IMG/VR virus record: IMGVR_UViG_3300033463_000041 | Location: 1 to 64,000 of that record | Direction: 5' to 3' (one strand) | DNA from: a virus | Taxonomy: Duplodnaviria; Caudoviricetes | DNA length: 64,000 nucleotides | In this document: piece by piece, positions 2,524-49,266 of the stretch | Numbering within the stretch: the stretch's first letter is position 1 | Layout: each line of letters opens with the position of its first letter | The notes under the pieces: model-generated | Told to the model about the DNA's origin: nothing | The model's input: the letters and a program-made list of their open reading frames with translations, nothing else | The model's database searches: none | Program-made: the position numbers and the translations under genes

Positions 2524-3108
2524 ATGATAGAGATACCGAAATATTCCATTGGAACGTATGATCCGAATGCGCTGGAAGAGAACCGTCGCACGGATTTTAC
2601 TCGACGCATACCAACGGGCCTTTCAGACAAGCAGATGGCACGCGACTCAAAGATATTCATGCAAATTCTTCGTGCTGCAGAAGGCGGTACCGACGGTGGC
2701 GCAGAACAGCGTGTGCTTGACTTGTTCTTCCGCAAGGCAAAGTTGCTGAGCAACCCACGCTATTGGGAAGTGATGCGCACGGTATGGATAGCCGCTGGTT
2801 CTACTGAGACGGCACAGAAGTTCCGAGCATTGATGAAGTCTGGCCGTCCCTGCCGCTCATGGTTTATGACACCGGAGGATGCAGAAGCGCTCGACAAGAT
2901 GGAGTTTCCGATTACCGTCTGGCGGGCCTACGACGCTGTGCGCTACCCAATGCTGGATCCCGGCATATCATGGACGCTGGATCGTGAGTGGTGCGAAGGA
3001 TATGCCAAGAGCAAAGGACGTATCGTCAAACAGCGTGAGGTTTACCGCGATGAGGTCTTTGCCTACATCACCCGTCGCAGCGAGGAAGAGATTATTATCC
3101 TGGACTGA
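2524..3108 (+). CDS. Hypothetical protein, possible ADP-ribosyltransferase-like fold
   Basis: R-S-E type pattern: ITVWRA ... GISWT ... SEEEII. Confidence 0.4.
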   Translation: MIEIPKYSIGTYDPNALEENRRTDFTRRIPTGLSDKQMARDSKIFMQILRAAEGGTDGGAEQRVLDLFFRKAKLLSNPRYWEVMRTVWIAAGSTETAQKFRALMKSGRPCRSWFMTPEDAEALDKMEFPITVWRAYDAVRYPMLDPGISWTLDREWCEGYAKSKGRIVKQREVYRDEVFAYITRRSEEEIIILD

Positions 3109-3297
3109 TTCAAACAAATTTTAAAATAACATTATTATGACAGGCGACATTAACATCCCAGAGATCTGGTATTCGTAAGGAAATAGGGACGGGAGTAAGA
3201 ACTCGGATAATGGCCCGAGTGGGTTTTTGTTTTTCTTTGACCCAGCCAGCGCCGTTTCTGTCCCTTACATTTACAAAACTTTAACAGATAACAAGAT

Positions 3298-4044
3298 ATG
3301 CAGAAGATAATGTTTGAACACCGTAGATTTGGTTTGGATCAGGCGGTGATAGACGGACTGAAAGAGATGACGCGACGCACTGCAAAGTTGCCTGATGGAC
3401 TTGAACAAAGCGATGTGTGGAATCCTGTAATGGGCATTGACAGCAAAGGCAGGGTGTATTTTACGGTGGACTGCATTGACGGTAAGCAACGCGACCTGTA
3501 CCCACGATACCAGATAGGCGAAGAAGTGGCCGTTGCTCAGACCTACAAGGATATTGACTATCGCGGCATTGTCGCTTGCGAGGACGCATCGGCCATTGGG
3601 CCTGGCATGGTTAGACCGATAACGGCGCAGGAGTCGGCAGGTTGGAATAACATGATGTTTGTCCGTGCAGACCTAATGCCAGAAAGCATCAAGATTACGA
3701 ACATCAAGTTGGAGCGGATGCAGGACATATCGGACGAGGACTGTCGCAAGGAGGGCATCATCTATGTGAAGTGGCGCCAGTATCCAGAACCGTTCAGTGA
3801 TCGCTATGTTGACCACGACCTGTGGACGCTTCCTAAATACGAGCAGCAATTTACCGACGCATGGTCGGACGATGACCCTGACGCATGGGCTGCCGAAAGT
3901 CCAAAAACCGCCTTCACCGTGCTTATTCGCAAGATGTGTGGAAAGAAAGCATGGGACTCGAATCCTTGGGTATTCGTGTATCAATTTGAACTGATAAAAA
4001 ATATTTTAAAGCTACAACATTATGAAGACAAACGAAATTATTGA
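3298..4044 (+). CDS. ASCH/PUA-like phage protein
   Basis: KEMTRR, ERMQDISDEDCRKEG and WDSNPWVFVYQF motifs typical of this phage family. Confidence 0.65.
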   Translation: MQKIMFEHRRFGLDQAVIDGLKEMTRRTAKLPDGLEQSDVWNPVMGIDSKGRVYFTVDCIDGKQRDLYPRYQIGEEVAVAQTYKDIDYRGIVACEDASAIGPGMVRPITAQESAGWNNMMFVRADLMPESIKITNIKLERMQDISDEDCRKEGIIYVKWRQYPEPFSDRYVDHDLWTLPKYEQQFTDAWSDDDPDAWAAESPKTAFTVLIRKMCGKKAWDSNPWVFVYQFELIKNILKLQHYEDKRNY

Positions 4045-4162
4045 AAAGAAAGTCATCGCCCTGCATAAAGAGGGTTGGCAAGTACCTAATATCGCCAGCA
4101 TTGCCCGTGTAAAACCAGACGTGGTGAAGCAGATATTGAGAGAGAAGAACCTGCTGATGTAA
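4022..4162 (+). CDS. Small HTH-like protein (46 aa, not in ORF track)
   Basis: MKTNEIIEKKVIALHKEGWQVPNIASIARVKPDVVKQILREKNLLM fills the gap between two genes. Confidence 0.55.
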   Translation: MKTNEIIEKKVIALHKEGWQVPNIASIARVKPDVVKQILREKNLLM

Positions 4163-4170
4163 TACAGGAT

Positions 4171-4677
4171 ATGGCAAAACATGGATTAACAGTAGCAAAG
4201 GCTACTAAGGAAGAGTTCAAGCGTGTTTGGGATTGGCTTCATACTATGGAGGCACTGTTTGATGGGCGCGGCATGTTCAGCACGGAAGAAGATTGGCGTG
4301 AGTGGGATGACGATGAGCCTGCAAAGAAACAGCTGCTGCAGATAGAAAAGGAAGTTATCGAAAGCGATGGTGCTATGTGGGATGGAAAGGCCGATAACGA
4401 TCGTGTGCTTTTCCTGTGGATGAAGCGGTCTTTTCTGAAAGCGAATAAATCAGGGAGTATAGGGCGCATACTCTTCGATTGTGAGACACTGATAGAGAAT
4501 GCCTGCGACCCGAAGTTGGACTATTTGGAGTTTAAACCCAGCATAATGTATGCTGAACGTAACGCTTTGGAGAAGGTAAATAAAATCATTAGCCGTGGCG
4601 AACTGAAAGGGCGGAACCCACAGAAGATAATTGCATCCATCAAGAAACTGATCGAGAAATCAAAAAAGGAGGATTGA
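4171..4677 (+). CDS. Hypothetical protein
   Basis: ORF in operon-like array. Confidence 0.75.
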   Translation: MAKHGLTVAKATKEEFKRVWDWLHTMEALFDGRGMFSTEEDWREWDDDEPAKKQLLQIEKEVIESDGAMWDGKADNDRVLFLWMKRSFLKANKSGSIGRILFDCETLIENACDPKLDYLEFKPSIMYAERNALEKVNKIISRGELKGRNPQKIIASIKKLIEKSKKED

Positions 4678-4680
4678 ACA

Positions 4681-5103
4681 ATGGCAAATGAAGTAGTTTG
4701 TAACTCGTTTCACGATACGCTGAATTGTGGTATGCGTGAAATTCATAAAATTGAGTTGGCAGCCATCGAAGATATCTTGCGCCATCATATCGAGAATCCA
4801 ATAGAAGGAGAACTGACACGTGAGAAAGTAAAACGTGCTGGAGTCCGTTGTATAGTGTACGACGCTGACATGAATGGAGAGTATATGCCAGATATGAAAT
4901 GGGAGGATGGCAACTTGAAATTAGAGATCACGAGTCCGCTACTTGGTATAGCACAGGGTGAATGGCTGATTGGACGTAACGGCATCCGACGCAGGCTGAC
5001 AGAGAAAGAAGAAGCATACCTGTCAAAGCTGGAGCAGGAAGAATGGATGGAAGAAATGGGATTAAACAAGAATAGAGGACTGAGCAATGAAACCGATACT
5101 TGA
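4681..5103 (+). CDS. Hypothetical protein
   Basis: ORF in array. Confidence 0.7.
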   Translation: MANEVVCNSFHDTLNCGMREIHKIELAAIEDILRHHIENPIEGELTREKVKRAGVRCIVYDADMNGEYMPDMKWEDGNLKLEITSPLLGIAQGEWLIGRNGIRRRLTEKEEAYLSKLEQEEWMEEMGLNKNRGLSNETDT

Positions 5104-10235: not shown

Positions 10236-10727
10236 ATGGATGAACGACAGCAAAAGAATTCTGTAGTATCGAGTGATAACTGGTACACCCCAAAATGGAT
10301 CATCGACGAGTTGGGTCCGTTTGACTGCGACCCATGCGCTGCACCTGCAGACGTTAGACCGTTCCAGATTGCACCTACGCAGTGGACGGAGGAAGATGAC
10401 GGCTTGGTTCAGACGTGGAATGGCGTGGTATTCATGAATCCACCGTATAGTCGTGTGCTGTTGCGTAAGTTCTGTGAGAAGATGGCCGAACATGGCAATG
10501 GCATTGCCTTGCTCATCAATCGTCAGGACAACCTACTTTGGCAGGAGGTAATCTTTCCAACGGCAGTGTCAATGATATTCATGCGCAACCGTGTGAAGTT
10601 CATTCGTCCTAACGGCTCTACAGGGCAGCCTTTCTTCGGCTCTTGTCTCGTGGCGTGGGGCGACAAGTGCGACCGCCGATTGCGTGAGAGTAAGATAGAA
10701 GGAAAGTATGTTGTACTGAATGTGTGA
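10236..10727 (+). CDS. Phage DNA N6-adenine methyltransferase (Dam-like)
   Basis: WYTPKWI, FDCDPCA and VFMNPPYS motifs. Confidence 0.88.
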   Translation: MDERQQKNSVVSSDNWYTPKWIIDELGPFDCDPCAAPADVRPFQIAPTQWTEEDDGLVQTWNGVVFMNPPYSRVLLRKFCEKMAEHGNGIALLINRQDNLLWQEVIFPTAVSMIFMRNRVKFIRPNGSTGQPFFGSCLVAWGDKCDRRLRESKIEGKYVVLNV

Positions 10728-12354
10728 ACAAACGATGAAACTTATGGAAGAAATAACCCTCTTATACATTGACCTCTTCTGTGGTGCTGGCGGTACATCA
10801 AGTGGTGTAGAGAATGCCCGCGTAGATGGCAAAAAGTGCGCAGAGGTGATAGCGTGCGTCAACCACGACGCGAACGCTATCAAGAGCCATGCGGCGAACC
10901 ATCCGAAGACGATGCACTTCACAGAGGACATCCGCACGCTGGACCTGGCACCTCTTGTAAAGCATCTGCAGAAGATGAAGAAGAAGCACCCCAAGGCAAA
11001 GACGGTATTATGGGCCTCGCTGGAATGCACGAACTTCTCAAAGGCAAAGGGCGGTCAGCCACGAGATGCCGACAGCCGCACGCTTGCAGAGCATCTGTTT
11101 CGCTACATCGAGGCCATTGATCCAGACTATATCCAGATTGAGAACGTGGAAGAGTTCATGTGCTGGGGAGCTTTGGACGAAAACGGCAAGCCTGTAAGCA
11201 AGGACCAAGGCAGCGACTATATGCGATGGGTGAAGAATGTTTGCAACTATGGTTACGATTTTGATTGGCGCATCCTGAATGCAGCAGACTTCGGAGCTTA
11301 CACAAGCCGCAAGCGTTTCTTTGGGCAGTTTGCCCGTAAGGGCCTTCCTATTGCCTTCCCCGTTCAGACGTTTGCAAAGAATGGCGATGACGGTGGTATG
11401 TTCAAGATGTATAGCAAGTGGCGTGCTGTTCGTGACGTGCTTGACCTTGATGATGATGGCACAAGCATCTTTACTAAAAAGAAACCGCTTTGTGAGAAGA
11501 CACTGGAGCGCATCTATGCCGGGCTTGTAAAGTTTGTGGCTGGTGGTAAGAAGCAGCATGAAGCGTGGATCCTGAAATACAACTCCATGAATAAGGACAA
11601 TCATCACAATGCCCCATCGCTTGACGAGCCGTGTCCTACGGTGGCCTGTCAGAATCGCCTTGGACTTGTAAAGTGTCAGTTCCTCTCAAAGCAATTCAGT
11701 GGTGACCCGTCCGGCAAGAACATCGACATTGAACAGCCGGCAGGCACCGTCACCTGCAAGGACCATCATGCTTTTGTCACTGCATATTACGGCAACGGAT
11801 TTAACAGTAGCATCGACGAGCCGTCGCCAACAATCACCACTAAGGACAGAATTTCTCTGGTTTCGACAAAGTTTGTGGCTAACGAGTACAGTGGTGGCGG
11901 TCAGATATCTGACATCAACAACCCTTGCCCTGCTGTGCTGACCACACCAAAGCAGAAGATAGTATCGGCGCAGTATCTGATGAATCCCTATTCGTTCAAG
12001 AGCGACGGCGGCAGCATCGACAAGCCGTGCTTTACACTCATTGCCCGCATGGACAAGATGCCGCCATATCTGATTACCACCAAGGAAGGAGTTGTTGGTA
12101 TTGCCATCTATGAGACAGATAGTCCTTGGACTCGCAAGGTGAAAGAGTTTATGGCCATGTACGGTATTGTGGATATCTGCATGCGTATGCTGAAAATTGA
12201 CGAACTGAAACGCATCATGGGATTTCCGTCAGATTATGTGCTTGTCGGTACCCAGGCTGAGCAGAAGAAATATATAGGTAATGCTGTCGAGGTAAACATG
12301 AGTCGCGTACTCTGCGAGGCACTGGCAAGGAAAATCACTATAAAGGATAAATAA
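10720..12354 (+). CDS. DNA cytosine-C5 methyltransferase
   Basis: DLFCGAGG (motif I), SLECTNFS (IV), IENVEEF (VI), RKRFF (VIII), ELKRIMGFP and IGNAV (IX/X). Confidence 0.92.
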   Translation: MCEQTMKLMEEITLLYIDLFCGAGGTSSGVENARVDGKKCAEVIACVNHDANAIKSHAANHPKTMHFTEDIRTLDLAPLVKHLQKMKKKHPKAKTVLWASLECTNFSKAKGGQPRDADSRTLAEHLFRYIEAIDPDYIQIENVEEFMCWGALDENGKPVSKDQGSDYMRWVKNVCNYGYDFDWRILNAADFGAYTSRKRFFGQFARKGLPIAFPVQTFAKNGDDGGMFKMYSKWRAVRDVLDLDDDGTSIFTKKKPLCEKTLERIYAGLVKFVAGGKKQHEAWILKYNSMNKDNHHNAPSLDEPCPTVACQNRLGLVKCQFLSKQFSGDPSGKNIDIEQPAGTVTCKDHHAFVTAYYGNGFNSSIDEPSPTITTKDRISLVSTKFVANEYSGGGQISDINNPCPAVLTTPKQKIVSAQYLMNPYSFKSDGGSIDKPCFTLIARMDKMPPYLITTKEGVVGIAIYETDSPWTRKVKEFMAMYGIVDICMRMLKIDELKRIMGFPSDYVLVGTQAEQKKYIGNAVEVNMSRVLCEALARKITIKDK

Positions 12355-21017: not shown

Positions 21018-21758
21018 ATGACGAGTGAAGTGTTTAATGTGGACTGTATGGAGTATATGCGCGGTGTTCCTGACAAGGCGTTCGATCTGGTGTTGGGCGA
21101 CCCGCCGTATGGACTCTATGCCAGCAAGCCGAAGAAGAAAACCGATGTGGTGAAGCAGAAGAACGGTCGCGTGCTGACTGCCAGGTGTAACGACTACGGC
21201 AAGAAGAACTGGGATACGAAGATACCGCCGCAGACGTTCTTCGACGAGTTGCGCCGCATCAGCCGACATCAAATAATCTTCGGTGCCAACTATTTCGGAC
21301 TGCAGGGCGGCATGATTGTCTGGGATAAGATCAACGGTGACAGCGACCAGATGGGATGTGAGATAGCCTACCAATCGTTCAATACTCGCACGGACATCGT
21401 TCACTTTATGTGGAACGGAATGATGCAGGGCATATACTGTGGCCGCGATGCGGGCAAGGCAATGGTTCAGCAGGGTAATAAGACCCTGAACGAGAAACGT
21501 ATCCATCCGACGCAGAAGCCCGTTGCGCTATATGCCTGGCTGCTGAGAGAATATGCCAAGAATGGCTGGCGCATCTTCGACCCGATGATGGGCAGTCAGT
21601 CAAGCCGTATCGCCGCCTATAAGACCGGCTTCGACTTCGTTGGCTGCGAGATAGACAGGGAGTATTTTGACAAAGGTTGTGAGCGATTCGATGCGGAGTG
21701 CCTGAACCGCACAAAGATACCCACAGGCCAGATTGTCGAGCAACTATCACTATTTTGA
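21018..21758 (+). CDS. DNA N4-cytosine/N6-adenine methyltransferase (beta class)
   Basis: DPPYG, HPTQKPVALY and FDPMMGSQSS motifs; ends QLSLF. Confidence 0.9.
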   Translation: MTSEVFNVDCMEYMRGVPDKAFDLVLGDPPYGLYASKPKKKTDVVKQKNGRVLTARCNDYGKKNWDTKIPPQTFFDELRRISRHQIIFGANYFGLQGGMIVWDKINGDSDQMGCEIAYQSFNTRTDIVHFMWNGMMQGIYCGRDAGKAMVQQGNKTLNEKRIHPTQKPVALYAWLLREYAKNGWRIFDPMMGSQSSRIAAYKTGFDFVGCEIDREYFDKGCERFDAECLNRTKIPTGQIVEQLSLF

Positions 21759-22401: not shown

Positions 22402-22429
22402 ATGTTGAACAAGAAAAGAAGGACTAATT

Positions 22430-22636
22430 ATGGGACGCATTTATTTAGACTCACTATCTGCAGGCACACGACTTGCGCTTAAAGGCATGAGATACTCTTT
22501 TACGCTGCAGTCTTCAGAAAGAGATGGCGACAGGTGCATCTTGCATGGCGAGCACGAAGGAAGAAATATCCATGTGGTGTGCGCTGTTAGTGGCAGAGGA
22601 CTTTTAGGTGTGATAAAGATTATAGAGGAGGATTGA
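22430..22636 (+). CDS. Hypothetical protein
   Basis: ORF directly upstream of the radical SAM gene. Confidence 0.6.
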   Translation: MGRIYLDSLSAGTRLALKGMRYSFTLQSSERDGDRCILHGEHEGRNIHVVCAVSGRGLLGVIKIIEED

Positions 22637-22639
22637 CGT

Positions 22640-23497
22640 ATGAACTGGTATATCAACAGCTGTGATGGCATCTATAACTCCTTCGACGTGCATTTCACGT
22701 CGGAGTGCGACAACCGTTGCAAGCATTGCATCGACGCAAAGTACGACGGCAAGGGTATCAAGAAACCAGATGCCCATGCCATCGCCAAGACAATCATCGA
22801 CAATCAGGAGGGCTTCGAGGACGTGCTGTTCCTCGGTGGCGAGCCGTGCCTGCATCTGCCGGAACTCTGCGACTGCATCCGCATGATCAAGCAGGAGACA
22901 TGGCTAAAATGCTATGTCACCACATCGGCACCAGCTACCTGCCATAGGCTATACCCGAAGTTCGTGGAACTGCTGGAGATAGCTGACGGTGTGAATATCT
23001 CGGTGCAGCACTACCGTGAGGATGTGGCCGACCAGATACGCGGCACACGCTCTACTTACGACCGCCAGGCATTCTATGCCTCGTTGCCGTATAAGCGGAA
23101 GATACGCATCCATTTGAACATCGTGCGTCCTTACCTCTGCGAAAAGAATGACATACTGGAGTGCCTGGGCCACTACGACTATATGGGCTTCCCTGTCATC
23201 AAACTCTCGGAGTTGCAGCGTGCATCGGACAGCTACGCATCGTTCGAGCAGATTATGGATGTAAAGCTCCCGTCACCATACGCTCACGGCTGTCAGACGT
23301 GGTTTAATATGCGGCAGTTCATTGCAGACTATCAAGGCCGTCTGCTGCTGAAACGCTCGTGCTTCCTGAACGAAGAATCATGCAAGGCCAGTCTGATGGA
23401 CGGTGTGAAGGTGATACGCAAATGTTTTGTAAAACCAAAGCCACAGCACTACGCAGTGGTATATGAAGATGGCTCACTCTCGAACGGGTGGGTATAG
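22640..23497 (+). CDS. Radical SAM enzyme
   Basis: CDNRCKHC (CxxxCxxC) and LGGEP motifs. Confidence 0.9.
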   Translation: MNWYINSCDGIYNSFDVHFTSECDNRCKHCIDAKYDGKGIKKPDAHAIAKTIIDNQEGFEDVLFLGGEPCLHLPELCDCIRMIKQETWLKCYVTTSAPATCHRLYPKFVELLEIADGVNISVQHYREDVADQIRGTRSTYDRQAFYASLPYKRKIRIHLNIVRPYLCEKNDILECLGHYDYMGFPVIKLSELQRASDSYASFEQIMDVKLPSPYAHGCQTWFNMRQFIADYQGRLLLKRSCFLNEESCKASLMDGVKVIRKCFVKPKPQHYAVVYEDGSLSNGWV

Positions 23498-23521
23498 TAT
23501 AAACAAAATAACAACAAGATT

Positions 23522-23710
23522 ATGTGGACAAAGTTTTTGAGAAACCTGATGGCGCAGAACGCGCTGAAGATGAGCCACTGCTCCAGCGGTGGCGGGTATG
23601 ACGGCGGTTGTCACTGCTCTCATAGTGGCGAAACACTCTATCGCAAAGTAGGCTATGGCCATTGCGCCACCTACGAGCCTGTCAATCATGGTGTCGGACA
23701 TTGCGGATAG
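23522..23710 (+). CDS. His-Cys repeat small peptide, putative RiPP precursor
   Basis: Leader-like N-terminus, then Gly-rich core with HCS, HCS, HCA, HCG; AT-rich start context. Confidence 0.6.
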   Translation: MWTKFLRNLMAQNALKMSHCSSGGGYDGGCHCSHSGETLYRKVGYGHCATYEPVNHGVGHCG

Positions 23711-23722
23711 GAGGACCGACGA

Positions 23723-23929
23723 ATGAACTGCACATGCGCCAACTGCCTGAATGCCTACAATTCGCCCTACCACGAACTGCCTCAATGCTACAACAAAGAT
23801 TGGTTGTATCAGGAACAGGATGCGGACTGCTCAGTACGCCCGGACGAATCGTGTGGCACATGGCAGCGGCGCGGCGAGAATCAGCCGCCCGTGAAATTTC
23901 CACGTGCGGTGCAACTGGAATTATTTTAA
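23723..23929 (+). CDS. Small Cys-rich protein ending QLELF
   Basis: CTCANC...C...C...C; clamp-binding-like C-terminus. Confidence 0.6.
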   Translation: MNCTCANCLNAYNSPYHELPQCYNKDWLYQEQDADCSVRPDESCGTWQRRGENQPPVKFPRAVQLELF

Positions 23930-23955
23930 AGAATAACAACTGAAATAAAAAATGT

Positions 23956-24411
23956 ATGAAGAAAGGCTTACCAATTAGAAATGTTACAATCGATCCGATG
24001 GGTGGCGAAATGCGCCATCGGACAGCTGAATACATGAAGAGCATCAATTGTGGCGCACGGTTTTTTGGCGACGATGCCTTGATAAAGGTGACGAATGAGA
24101 CGTGGCCAGATGGAACAGAAGTCGTGGTGTGTTGTCATAAGGAAGACAGGGAAGCTGTGAGTCGTGTGGTTGAGCAGAAGGGATACAAGATAGCAACCTT
24201 TGTCGATGTCGATGATGATTGGCTCGGCGAAATGGTTGTAAAGCGCGGCCAGTATGTTATGACGAAGAAGGAGCCAATCCACTGGAACTTCGCCGACGCT
24301 AAACGTCCATTTGGCATTTTTGAATCCGCCCATGAGGCGATGCAACGTGGTATGGCAGTAGCCGACAGTGTATTTTGGAGAAAATCAAACAAGGAGGAAA
24401 ACGCCAAATGA
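23956..24411 (+). CDS. Hypothetical protein, paralogue of 5982..6431
   Basis: WPDGTEVVVCCHKEDREAV...KGYKIA. Confidence 0.75.
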   Translation: MKKGLPIRNVTIDPMGGEMRHRTAEYMKSINCGARFFGDDALIKVTNETWPDGTEVVVCCHKEDREAVSRVVEQKGYKIATFVDVDDDWLGEMVVKRGQYVMTKKEPIHWNFADAKRPFGIFESAHEAMQRGMAVADSVFWRKSNKEENAK

Positions 24412-45849: not shown

Positions 45850-46935
45850 ATGGAAACTATCACCCAAACCAATGCGCTGAAGGCCGTACAGTCCGGTCTC
45901 ACGCAATCCGCACCTGGAGCGACACAGCAGTTAATGCTTTTTAATCCAGATGGCACCCCTGCAAACAAGTGTACTCCGCAACAGCTAATTACGGACGGAG
46001 CATACCTTGGTGGTGGATATGCTACCTGTGCAACAGCTGCGACAACACAGGCAAAGACAGTCACTCTCTCGAATTATCTCTTGCTGAAGAACGTTCCGGT
46101 ATCAGTCCGCTTCCAGAACGGCATCAACGTGGCAGGGGCTACGCTCAATATCAACTCTCAAGGAGCAAAGCCAATCCTTATTAACGGATCAGCACTGCAG
46201 CCTGGCGTCGTCCGCCCTGGCATGACCGTCACATTTGTCTACGACGGCACGAACTACAACATCATTGAGATGCTGGGTCTTGAGCAGAGTGCAAGCCCCT
46301 CAGACCTCTTTGTGGACATGGGGCTTCCTTCCGGCCTTCTCTGGGCAAAGAAAAATATCGACGTGACACAGGCCGATGGTTTCGCGGCCAGCGAATACCA
46401 GTACGAATGCTCATTCGTCTCTTGGGGCAATACCCAGATGTACAACCCAACGAGCACGTCAGCATTTGCACATGACTTCGGAACGTCAAACGAAGGTCCT
46501 TATGCATCTACTCCCGGTGCAGCTCTCACGGGCAACATGTCGCCGTCGTTTGATGCAGCACGCGCAAACATCGGCGCGCCTTGGCGTATGCCTACTACCG
46601 AGGAATATGCGGAACTGTTCAACAGCAGCTATACAAAGTATATTGATGCTGACGGCAATGATATCGCCGCTGAGACAGCGAATAAGCTGATCACCATCAA
46701 CGGCATTACGGGCATCCGTCTGAAATCCAAGGTCAACGGCAACGTTATTTTCTTTCCTTGCTCCGGCTACGGTGACGGGACGTCGTGGGGCACTCGCGGT
46801 TCGTTCGGCTTCTATTGGGCGTCTTCATTGTTCTCTTCTACGTATGGTCGCGACCTGTACTTCGATTCGGGTGGTGTCGGTCCTCAGAACCTCAGCTACC
46901 GCTTCATCGGTTTCACCGTGCGGGCTGTTCAGTAA
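45850..46935 (+). CDS. DGR target protein: fibre N-terminus plus C-type-lectin-fold (Fib_succ_major-like) domain
   Basis: VDMGLPSGLLWA..N, WRMPT..E..EL, G.YWASS and GFTVRAV motifs; 3' end is the VR. Confidence 0.9.
   Translation: METITQTNALKAVQSGLTQSAPGATQQLMLFNPDGTPANKCTPQQLITDGAYLGGGYATCATAATTQAKTVTLSNYLLLKNVPVSVRFQNGINVAGATLNINSQGAKPILINGSALQPGVVRPGMTVTFVYDGTNYNIIEMLGLEQSASPSDLFVDMGLPSGLLWAKKNIDVTQADGFAASEYQYECSFVSWGNTQMYNPTSTSAFAHDFGTSNEGPYASTPGAALTGNMSPSFDAARANIGAPWRMPTTEEYAELFNSSYTKYIDADGNDIAAETANKLITINGITGIRLKSKVNGNVIFFPCSGYGDGTSWGTRGSFGFYWASSLFSSTYGRDLYFDSGGVGPQNLSYRFIGFTVRAVQ
46748..46932 (+). repeat. DGR variable repeat (VR)
   Basis: 185-nt ungapped match to 47837-48021; by manual count 22 of 23 mismatches are at TR adenines. 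Confidence 0.97.
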
Positions 46936-46938
46936 TTA

Positions 46939-47021
46939 TGCCTTGACCCAAGGCACTCATTTCCGCAGGCCATGCCCCAAGCCGCCCACCAGGCGGCACA
47001 AGGCATGGTCGAAGGAAATGA
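46939..47021 (+). other. Hairpins downstream of VR (DGR homing cis-elements)
   Basis: tgccttg-acc-caaggca stem, then a long imperfect hairpin tcatttcc/ggaaatga, ccatgcc/ggcatgg, gccgcc/ggcggc. Confidence 0.7.
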
Positions 47022-47070
47022 CTACAGTGAAAATTAGTAACAACAAATAATCAATAAAACAATAAAAGCA

Positions 47071-47649
47071 ATGAGACTCAACGCCGCATTGGAATATGAG
47101 AAGGTAAGAGAGAATGACTCCAACTGGAACAAGGTGGTTCTTCACAAGGACGGGCATTTCTATCACGCCTACGAATGGAGCGCGTGGCTGATAAAGACGT
47201 TTGTCTGTACTGAGGAATTCCAGAAAGCGCGTCAGGACAATTCGGTCCTTTCGGCCTTGCATTTTATCACGAAGAACAATGACTATGTGATGCTCGGCTT
47301 CCCTCTTGAGAGTCTGTCAAAGTATATTCCTGAGTACGAGGACGTAAAAGCGCTGGAAGGTGACGACCTCGAAATAACGATTGCACTGCCGGTCGATGAA
47401 GACCGTACATTCGAGAGCATGTCTGAATCCTTCAGTGCATGGCGCACAGAATGTCCCATCAAGGAGCCGCCTAACAAGGGTGCTGGCAAGAATGCACTGA
47501 AAGGTGTCAGCCAGGCTGCTGTTCTCAGCCGTAGCGGCATATTTCAGATAGCAGCACAGGTTATGGCCTATCCTGTTGAGAAGAGTACTCCTGCCGAGAA
47601 TATTGAGTTCATCTCAAGTCTGAAACAGCAGGTGGCACAACTCCTTTGA
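47071..47649 (+). CDS. DGR accessory protein, MutS-like (MSL type)
   Basis: VVLHKDGHFYHAYEWSA resembles MutS domain I; C-terminal KSTPAENIEFISSLKQQV resembles the MutS C-terminal helix; lies between VR and TR. Confidence 0.7.
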   Translation: MRLNAALEYEKVRENDSNWNKVVLHKDGHFYHAYEWSAWLIKTFVCTEEFQKARQDNSVLSALHFITKNNDYVMLGFPLESLSKYIPEYEDVKALEGDDLEITIALPVDEDRTFESMSESFSAWRTECPIKEPPNKGAGKNALKGVSQAAVLSRSGIFQIAAQVMAYPVEKSTPAENIEFISSLKQQVAQLL

Positions 47650-47836
47650 GCCTGTCTGCAAACAAACCTCCAGCTTCTAAAGGTGTTCTTTCATTTTGTG
47701 GGCTATTCAGAATAAGGCATAATTCATAGGTTGCTCGTCCTTCATCCCAATGGATGCGGGAAAAATCAAAGACTGATGATGGCTTCCCTTGCGGATTCTT
47801 TCTTCTGTTCGTATCAGGCAGCAACCGCCATGAGGT

Positions 47837-48021
47837 TTTTCTTTCCTTGCTCCGGCAACGGTAACGGGACGTCGTGGAACAATCGCGGTTCGAACGGCAA
47901 CTATTGGGCGTCGTCATTGAACTCTTCTACGAATGGTCGCAACCTGAACTTCAATTCGGGTGGTGTCAATCCTCAGAACAACAACAACCGCTTCAACGGT
48001 TTCACCGTGCGGGCTGTTCAG
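47837..48021 (+). ncRNA. DGR template repeat (TR)
   Basis: Adenine-rich copy of VR with 17 AAY codons, immediately upstream of RT. Confidence 0.96.
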
Positions 48022-48078
48022 CATTCTGTCTATCAGTGATGGCAACACATATAGATAAACATAAAAACGAAGGATAGT

Positions 48079-49266
48079 ATGGCGTATAGATTGACAAAGA
48101 AATCACTATTGCTTGACCTTTATGCAGCATTTGCATGTGCAAAGCAGCATAAGGCATCGAAGGCGTATGTGCTTCACTTCCGCAACAATCTTGACGCGAA
48201 CCTCCGCAAACTATGTGATGACTTGTGGAATCGCAGATACAAGCCTGAACCCTCCAGCTGTTTTATCGTTGAACGTCCTAAGAAGCGTGAGGTCTTTGCA
48301 GCTCAGTTCAGAGACAGGGTGGTACATCACCTATACTACAATTATACGCATGTCCTGTTTGAGCGCACATTCATACAAGACACCTATTCGTGTATTCCAG
48401 GACGCGGGACGCATTACGGAGTCGAAAGACTTGAGATGCACATACGGAAGGAAAGCCGGAACTATACCAGACGCTGCTATGCTCTGAAACTCGACAAGCG
48501 CGGATATTTCATGCACATAGACCGGAGCCGTCTGCTGTCTATAACGCTCGGCTCGCTCGAAAAAATGGGCGAACACAGGATAGGCCGTAGCGGTAAGACG
48601 TGGAACGATCATCTTGACATGGACTTCCTCGGATGGCTGTCAGAGGAAATCATCACGCTTAATCCGAAGGAACACTGCCATATCGTAGGCTCGGTAAAGG
48701 ACTGGGACGGACTTGACAGGAACAAGTCGCTGTTCTATACCGTCGACGGATGCGGACTGCCCATAGGGAACCTGACATCGCAGCTGCTCAGCAATGTCTA
48801 TCTGAACTGCTTCGACCAGTATATGAAACGAGAACTCGGATGTAAGCATTATGGACGTTATGTCGATGACAGCTATGTCGTCAGCTGTGACAGGGAATGG
48901 CTTCTTGCCCTCGTCCCGAAGATAAGGGCCTTCCTTAAAGACGTTTTGGGATTGGACCTTCATATGGGGAAACTCCATATCGTAGACGTGTCTTTCGGTG
49001 TTGAGTTCCTCGGTGCGTTTGTGAAGAAATTCAGGACGTATGTAAGCCGTGCGTCCATTGGTCGTTCCGCAGCAAGCATACTCAACCTGTGCCTGGAAGA
49101 TGGCGCTCAGGCGTGGCGTAGCATAAACTCGTTTGTCGGCATGATGGCCCATTATACGTCATACTATGTCCGTTGCCGTATATTCCTACGTCCGGACTTC
49201 CTCTCTATTGCTACATTCGACAAGGATGTGAAGAAGATGAATAAACCATTATTTATAAACGTTTAA
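48079..49266 (+). CDS. DGR reverse transcriptase
   Basis: KKREVFAA.FRDRVVHH, GLPIGNLTSQ and RYVDD motifs; FLG thumb motif. Confidence 0.96.
   Translation: MAYRLTKKSLLLDLYAAFACAKQHKASKAYVLHFRNNLDANLRKLCDDLWNRRYKPEPSSCFIVERPKKREVFAAQFRDRVVHHLYYNYTHVLFERTFIQDTYSCIPGRGTHYGVERLEMHIRKESRNYTRRCYALKLDKRGYFMHIDRSRLLSITLGSLEKMGEHRIGRSGKTWNDHLDMDFLGWLSEEIITLNPKEHCHIVGSVKDWDGLDRNKSLFYTVDGCGLPIGNLTSQLLSNVYLNCFDQYMKRELGCKHYGRYVDDSYVVSCDREWLLALVPKIRAFLKDVLGLDLHMGKLHIVDVSFGVEFLGAFVKKFRTYVSRASIGRSAASILNLCLEDGAQAWRSINSFVGMMAHYTSYYVRCRIFLRPDFLSIATFDKDVKKMNKPLFINV

Follow-up and report, generated by a model that had tools for sequence, protein, structure and literature searches.

A phage radical SAM enzyme and its small Cys-ended peptide as a possible RiPP-like enzyme-substrate pair

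What is the function of a small radical S-adenosylmethionine (SAM) enzyme in a phage, when a short open reading frame (ORF) with His-Cys pairs begins directly behind its gene? This question is raised by the IMG/VR virus record IMGVR_UViG_3300033463_000041, a sequence from the Caudoviricetes, of which positions 1 to 64,000 were analyzed (64,000 nucleotides, hereafter the window). On the plus strand of the window, a radical SAM enzyme gene for 285 amino acids (22640–23497) is followed by a spacer of 24 nt (23498–23521) and by an ORF for a peptide of 62 amino acids (23522–23710). In many relatives there is instead an overlap of a few bases between the two ORFs. A sequence-only reading of this stretch had described an enzyme with CxxxCxxC and GGEP motifs, the 24-nt gap, and a 62-residue peptide with HCS, HCS, HCA, and HCG, and had proposed a viral system for a peptide that is made ribosomally and modified post-translationally (RiPP). 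All of the described elements are present in the sequence. On balance, the evidence leans modestly toward a RiPP-like enzyme-substrate pair that acts on Cys, in which a minimal radical SAM enzyme and a dedicated ribosomal peptide make up a two-gene phage module.

The enzyme is a member of the radical SAM superfamily by several features. It contains the motif of the SAM cluster (Cys23-x3-Cys27-x2-Cys30) and a GGE-type motif (Gly-Gly-Glu-Pro, residues 66–69), it scores above the Pfam cut-offs for Radical_SAM (PF04055, 41.1 bits, cut-off 29.5) and Fer4_12 (PF13353, 35.2 bits, cut-off 22), and it adopts a partial TIM-barrel fold in its AlphaFold2 model, which has a predicted local distance difference test (pLDDT) of 96.7 and a predicted template modeling score of 0.92. 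Over 100 enzyme sequences, down to about 20% identity, Cys23, Cys27, Cys30, GGEP, E191, C218, and C241 are invariant, and at least 90% of the sequences share N6, C8, T95, S121, and G217. No SPASM family was among the Pfam matches at E values up to 1, and only three Cys are conserved beyond the SAM cluster. SPASM-type NCBIfam models gave 18–29 bits, compared with cut-offs of 395–400. There was also no Pfam match to a RiPP precursor recognition element (RRE, PqqD-like) in the enzyme or its neighbors, and only 22 residues precede the cluster motif. The lack of clear RRE and SPASM domains had already been noticed from the sequence alone and agrees with the Pfam results, but the three further conserved Cys mean that an auxiliary cluster is still likely. 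In the model, C218 and C241 flank a beta-hairpin (strands 219–222 and 234–238), which is followed by a helix (252–263), and presumably this hairpin is comparable to the start of SPASM/twitch domains. MoaA and CteB have an auxiliary cluster with one open site, and the conservation pattern suggests that C8, C218, and C241 hold a cluster of the same kind.

That relatives of this enzyme neighbor a peptide of this type, as the RiPP proposal implied, was borne out. A first viral scan gave 34 loci with enzymes 53–80% identical, and the peptide was found in 34/34. In 32 of them it is a separate ORF that starts −10 to +31 nt from the enzyme stop. In one locus (L031) the peptide is joined in frame to the enzyme by a frameshift, and in another (L041) it lies behind a truncated enzyme. 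Later scans used alignments of more distant clades, with an automatic detector for a Cys-ended peptide or tail at the enzyme stop, and the stops of other ORFs of at least 150 amino acids in the same loci served as the control. The detector was positive at 60 of the 64 distinct viral loci (34/34, 18/22, and 8/8 by scan), compared with 17 of 189 control stops. It was also positive at 10 of 11 loci from metagenome-assembled genome (MAG) bins that have room downstream. Three groups were excluded from these counts: 16 partial matches at E values of 1e-9 to 2e-4, which were taken as other radical SAM families (L095–L110), loci on the same contigs as counted ones (L004–L007, L067, L079, L086–L094), and a contig ending at the enzyme (L052). 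Conservation of the peptide extends over enzyme identities from 80% to about 30% and includes fused forms. Thus, the pairing of enzyme and peptide exceeds chance.

The loci at the edge of the counts were inspected by eye. Two of the detector-negative viral loci have no Cys peptide or tail (L066, L072), in the third the 3′ end of the enzyme is disrupted (L070), and the fourth has a fused Cys-Tyr end with its Cys one residue from the terminus, which the detector rule missed (L074). Among the MAG loci, the detector match of L049 was spurious, and a 28-residue peptide with two Cys and without His was found there instead. L051 has a 25-residue peptide with a Cys-Cys-His C-terminus, and the tail of L053 (26% identity) is fused and contains two Cys-His. 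In a 735-kb uncultured phage with a partial match of 25.8% identity (L003), no Cys tail was present in the frames inspected, and this phage was set aside as too distant.

The peptide of the window can be divided into a leader-like basic amphipathic helix (residues 1–17, 23522–23572) and a Gly-rich core (residues 18–62 and the stop codon, 23573–23710). His-Cys occurs at residues 19–20, 31–32, 46–47, and 60–61, followed by Ser, Ser, Ala, and Gly, respectively. There is a fifth Cys at residue 30, and the last Cys is one residue short of the C-terminus. In the peptide alignment M1 is invariant and T3 is kept in at least 90%, and the leader pattern of the family is Met, an aromatic residue, Thr, Lys or Arg, and then a hydrophobic/basic repeat. 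When compared with its three closest relatives, the peptide gene has a ratio of nonsynonymous to synonymous substitution rates (dN/dS) of about 0.07 at dS of 0.96 to 3.4. The enzyme gene has a dN/dS of 0.10–0.13 in two of the same three comparisons, and the third was saturated. Judged by these ratios, the peptide gene is under strong purifying selection.

Complex prediction was carried out with enzyme and peptide alignments that we supplied, and with two clusters and SAM included. The median score was 0.78, versus 0.01 for the best control. Of 80 solved complexes 58 scored this high, as did 2 of 110 mismatched pairs, and these benchmark counts are rough given the supplied alignments and ligands. 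At least 19% of contacts are common to the runs, and the partner pLDDT is at least 36. The confident interface consists of peptide residues 2–13 and enzyme residues 242–262 (codons at 23363–23425), that is, the segment and helix directly after Cys241. The model supports binding of the peptide to the enzyme through its N-terminal helix, and this predicted docking is what would be expected of a leader, as the N-terminus had been called before. We know of no solved complex of this enzyme family. Since known leader-enzyme complexes use an RRE, a memorized similar structure is an unlikely cause of the high score.

These results bear on the simplest alternative, in which the enzyme acts without a partner and the short ORF is open by chance. 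Short ORFs are common, as the flagged control stops illustrate, and the peptide has no family match in Pfam, PHROGs, NCBIfam, or PADLOC. On the other hand, the low dN/dS of the peptide, its conservation over a wide range of enzyme identity together with the fused forms, and the gap between the complex score and its best control all speak against a chance frame, which we find hardly credible.

The form of the peptide varies considerably within the family. The usual partner peptide has only 27–41 residues and two Gly-His-Cys units, and is laid out as a helix of about 16 residues, Gly-His-Cys, a Gly/Ser/Asp-rich spacer of 2–12 residues, Gly-His-Cys, and one last residue. The clade of the window (L008–L011, L039) has an extra second half with two more units, and window residues from about 34 to 62 are limited to this clade. 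In some clades Gly-Cys-His replaces Gly-His-Cys, and some have four units. Overall, relatives have 1, 2, or 4 Cys units with spacers of 2 to about 12 residues. One locus, L028, has two tandem peptide genes behind one enzyme gene (3346–3538 of that locus), each with two Gly-His-Cys units and with different spacers. In another, the 139-kb phage contig L019, the enzyme-peptide pair is followed by a second radical SAM gene of 414 amino acids with its own CxxxCxxC, 150 nt past the enzyme stop.

In 14 of 93 full-length cluster representatives, a Cys-His tail is fused to the enzyme. Viral loci L075 and L077–L085 likewise have a fused tail, and those from L080 to L085 have a single Cys, two residues from the end. 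Where the tail is fused, a tether of 4 to about 70 residues stands in place of the helix. The fused-tail member L053 lies on a 778-kb contig of a Patescibacteria bin (2940–4822 of that locus), beside a Bro-N gene and between glycosyltransferase, TrmD, and rhamnose-pathway genes. This region looks like a small mobile islet, and its bacterial surroundings gave no hint of function.

Fifteen records of Lak megaphages encode enzymes 33–35% identical to the window enzyme, and the downstream region was examined in two of them (Lak-B1 and Lak-A2). The next ORF of Lak-B1 is 166 residues long and has two Gly-Gly-Cys units at its end, with Cys as the final residue. In Lak-A2 (L001, 3868–4450), the ORF after the enzyme stops at 114 amino acids, and a Cys tail like that of Lak-B1 continues in another frame. 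A frameshift, an assembly error, or recoding may explain the split tail. With the Lak phages included, the family ranges from 25-kb contigs to 540-kb megaphages.

Variants without any His are found in L049, the Lak phages, and L080–L085. Across the clades, the constant feature is a Cys in a flexible tail, no more than about three residues from the C-terminus and usually after Gly. His is frequent but dispensable. A docking helix delivers the tail in some members, and a covalent tether does so in others. Therefore, the common denominator of these variants is the C-terminal Cys. The earlier description of a His-Cys repeat peptide is right in that the peptide is conserved. However, its four motifs are specific to the window clade, two being usual, and its His is absent from some members and comes after the Cys in others.

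Could the peptide or tail instead be a small metal- or Fe-S-binding subunit, which completes or carries a cluster or shuttles electrons to the radical SAM cluster, while the enzyme acts on something else? It is typical of subunits that their ORFs are coupled or overlap and that natural fusions occur, and His-Cys and Cys-His are interchangeable in this family. Moreover, the enzyme has just three extra conserved Cys, so that one ligand is left to supply, and the helix is predicted to dock beside Cys241. Yet a defined site is expected to keep the number and spacing of its ligands, and both the number of Cys units (1, 2, or 4) and their spacing vary here. The variants without His and the tandem peptide genes of L028 also fit such a subunit poorly. 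Because unit number and spacing are variable, peptide genes occur in tandem, and a helix can be exchanged for a tether, a substrate fits better than a fixed metal site, and we consider the subunit explanation unlikely.

For a RiPP-like pair, the family provides a gene-encoded precursor with a conserved helix and a variable Cys core, which is adjacent to the enzyme or fused with it at the viral loci flagged above. The following course of events can be proposed. The N-terminal amphipathic helix of the peptide would dock on the C-terminal helix of the enzyme (242–262) after Cys241, and thus the enzyme would read its leader without an RRE domain. Cys8, Cys218, and Cys241 would ligate an auxiliary Fe-S cluster having one open site. 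Docking would bring the flexible Gly-(His)-Cys units, which start right after the helix, to the auxiliary cluster and the SAM site, where the 5′-deoxyadenosyl radical would take a hydrogen in or beside the Cys unit. The likeliest product would be a Cys thioether cross-link, and oxidation or epimerization at Cys would be less likely. The aromatic i to i+2 cyclophane mentioned in the sequence-only reading does not suit this peptide, which has no conserved aromatic residue to act on. With four units, the window peptide might be modified at up to four sites. Among the related loci compared, the neighbors vary and the pair has no conserved companion such as a protease or exporter, which agrees with the earlier observation that no exporter or protease is adjacent. 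The modified peptide therefore probably keeps its leader and has its function within the infected cell. The His/Cys pairs may point to metal binding or a redox role.

The family placement of the enzyme does not point to one known function. The enzyme reached no curated cut-off in NCBIfam, with a best match of 37.6 bits versus 262. Scores were low for the peptide maturases PapB (14.9 bits versus 340) and the lachnocin radical SAM enzyme (17.2 versus 550), and for HxsC (17.6 versus 267.9) and HxsC4 (24 versus 500). Thus, the likeness to His-Xaa-Ser and PapB-type systems that had been drawn from the sequence does not hold as family membership. In PHROGs, only weak partial matches were obtained (phrog_1802, 29.3 bits). 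An Atlas search returned a viral radical SAM family. In one database 968 relatives were found at E values up to 0.001, and a profile search of another gave 479 cluster representatives at the same limit, of which 86 were at E values up to 1e-30. The enzyme family is almost wholly viral.

By structure, solved radical SAM enzymes match the enzyme model at Z scores of 14–17. Among them are the peptide-modifying SuiB (Z 17.4, root mean square deviation 3.8 over 243 residues), CteB (16.5), and SkfB (15.0), together with viperin (16.9), MoaA (16.8), and the pyruvate formate-lyase (PFL) activase (16.3). Since SuiB, viperin, and MoaA are tied within 1 Z, the fold leaves it undecided whether the substrate is a peptide or a nucleotide. 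A second alternative is therefore a viperin- or MoaA-like enzyme that acts on a nucleotide or small molecule, for example in counter-defense or DNA modification, with the Cys tail donating or carrying sulfur or serving as a regulatory pseudo-substrate. In a sequence-profile search of the PDB, the best matches were viperins (E 2e-19), followed by MoaA (2e-12), and in Foldseek MoaA was the top match across the full length of the enzyme. The pVip models were its sole defense matches in PADLOC (33.5 bits, weak and limited to the core), and DNA methyltransferase genes are nearby in the window. However, the alignment in the PDB search is confined to the common core (residues 23–193), and the NCBIfam scores are far below the cut-offs (viperin_w_prok 29.6 bits versus 180, viperin 20.9 versus 450, MoaA 21.8 versus 284). 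No nucleotide-pathway gene is conserved beside the pair, and the conserved docking helix is left unexplained. We regard this alternative as quite improbable.

In a third alternative, the enzyme would be an activase and would generate a stable radical at the Gly beside the Cys, in the style of glycyl radical enzymes, so that the tail would be a miniature radical cofactor. The size and fold of the enzyme resemble those of the PFL activase, some family members carry the Joint Genome Institute label 'organic radical activating enzyme', and Gly precedes the Cys unit in most members. Nevertheless, the activase models of NCBIfam gave scores well below their cut-offs (PFLA 16.4 bits versus 231.75, NrdG2 19.5 versus 131.15, nrdG3 21 versus 151.7). 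A flexible peptide of 30 residues has no fold to shield a radical, and extra conserved Cys are not a feature of activases. This explanation is very improbable.

Returning to the enzyme-substrate pair, several points weigh against it. The predicted fold is equally near to viperin and MoaA, which act on nucleotides, and to the PFL activase, and viperin is the best match by sequence profile in the PDB. The complex model places only the helix, and the Cys core has no confident position in it (partner pLDDT 36–40). The chemistry is purely inferred. A small partner that is encoded downstream, translationally coupled, or fused would also suit a stoichiometric subunit, and the interchange of His-Cys and Cys-His suits a metal ligand as well as a substrate. 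As to the counts, four viral loci were not flagged, the false-positive rate of the detector at control stops is 9%, and several loci come from near-identical phages, so that the counts of loci are not independent events. In favor of the pair, RNA-library contigs from two studies, with a likeness of 95–99%, cover parts of the enzyme gene and the whole peptide ORF (23486–23718 in one run), with gaps at 22405–22566 and 23944–24400. They give a weak indication that the enzyme-peptide locus is transcribed, because RNA libraries can contain DNA and these contigs may be DNA carry-over.

An enzyme-substrate pair of this kind may also be viewed as a virus-specific class of peptide or tail modification. 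Here, an enzyme without RRE and SPASM would act on C-terminal Gly-(His)-Cys units, and these would become a Cys-derived cross-link of a new kind or a cofactor-like metal-binding group. The product would be used inside the infected anaerobic host, for example in metal capture, as a redox cofactor, or in disabling host defense, and self-modifying fused enzymes would be an ancestral or alternative form. This extended version is possible but doubtful. No published description of the enzyme-peptide system was found in full-text literature searches, which did not cover supplements. The system is probably an undescribed and essentially viral case of peptide modification by a radical SAM enzyme, in which the RRE and SPASM parts usual for this are absent. 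If the two genes encode enzyme and substrate, they represent a widespread system of peptide modification carried by phages. A radical SAM enzyme that recognizes its leader with neither RRE nor SPASM would then widen the genome-mining rules for such systems, and an intracellular His/Cys peptide could indicate that phages of anaerobes deal with metals, redox chemistry, or host defense in a new way. The module consists of two small genes and is thus readily testable by anaerobic co-expression.

The surroundings of the pair are those of a phage genome. The window has a GC content of 50.6% and matches to a DnaB-type helicase, a DNA methyltransferase, a tail protein, a head protease, and the reverse transcriptase of a diversity-generating retroelement (DGR). 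The source virus record has 117146 bases, is rated 98% complete, and contains the enzyme in a single copy. The public runs that contain this stretch are ruminant gut metagenomes, and a megablast search with 12 kb around the enzyme-peptide pair gave no match to phage records. Three DNA methyltransferase genes are located in the early/replication region (10236–12354 and 21018–21758), one of them just upstream of the pair. Directly downstream, 13 nt past the peptide gene, begins an ORF of 68 amino acids with six Cys (23723–23929). Several related loci have an unrelated small Cys-rich ORF at this place. This ORF was considered as a third component, but it was rejected because the closest relatives, L008 and L009 (80% identical), do not have it and the neighbors at other loci are unrelated. 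The DGR occupies 45850–49266. Its variable repeat of 185 nt (46748–46932) is at the end of an ORF of 361 amino acids, and its template repeat (47837–48021) is upstream of the reverse transcriptase gene (48079–49266, phrog_1423). Of the 23 mismatches between the two repeats, 22 are at template adenines.

Among known systems, those of sactipeptides and ranthipeptides (CteB/CteA 'SCIFF', PapB/PapA, SkfB/SkfA, AlbA/SboA) share with the phage pair a radical SAM enzyme, a short ribosomal peptide with reactive Cys, and the logic of leader plus core. CteB has an auxiliary cluster whose open site takes a Cys of the substrate, and the phage enzyme would have a similar one. Both CteB and SkfB are among the fold matches listed above. 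In contrast to these systems, the phage enzyme has no SPASM match, has no room for an N-terminal RRE since its motif begins at residue 23, is only 285 amino acids long, and stays below the NCBIfam equivalog cut-offs of PapB and the lachnocin enzyme. Its peptide is encoded downstream or fused, a conserved acceptor residue is not evident, and the family is almost wholly viral. SuiB, which modifies the peptide SuiA to streptide, is the top structural match and is itself a peptide-modifying radical SAM enzyme, but it is tied with viperin and MoaA within 1 Z. SuiB differs in that it contains RRE and SPASM domains and links Lys with Trp.

Viperin, the prokaryotic viperins, and MoaA give the best sequence-profile matches to the core of the phage enzyme and are similarly compact and of similar length. 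MoaA also has a C-terminal auxiliary cluster held by three Cys. However, viperin and MoaA act on CTP and GTP without a peptide partner, and the phage enzyme is far below their cut-offs, with its C-terminal third unmatched by sequence. The His-Xaa-Ser system (HxsA with HxsB/HxsC) likewise combines a His-containing repeat peptide with dedicated radical SAM partners. Unlike that system, the phage peptide conserves Cys and the preceding His or Gly rather than His-x-Ser, there is a single enzyme, and HxsC is far below its cut-off. Two further parallels concern architecture only, since enzymes and chemistry are unrelated. In the borosins (OphMA-type), substrates are fused or separate within one family, as the peptide is in the phage family, and in the mycofactocin and pyrroloquinoline quinone pathways the cores are C-terminal, the reactive residues of MftA being at the extreme C-terminus, as those of the phage peptide would be.

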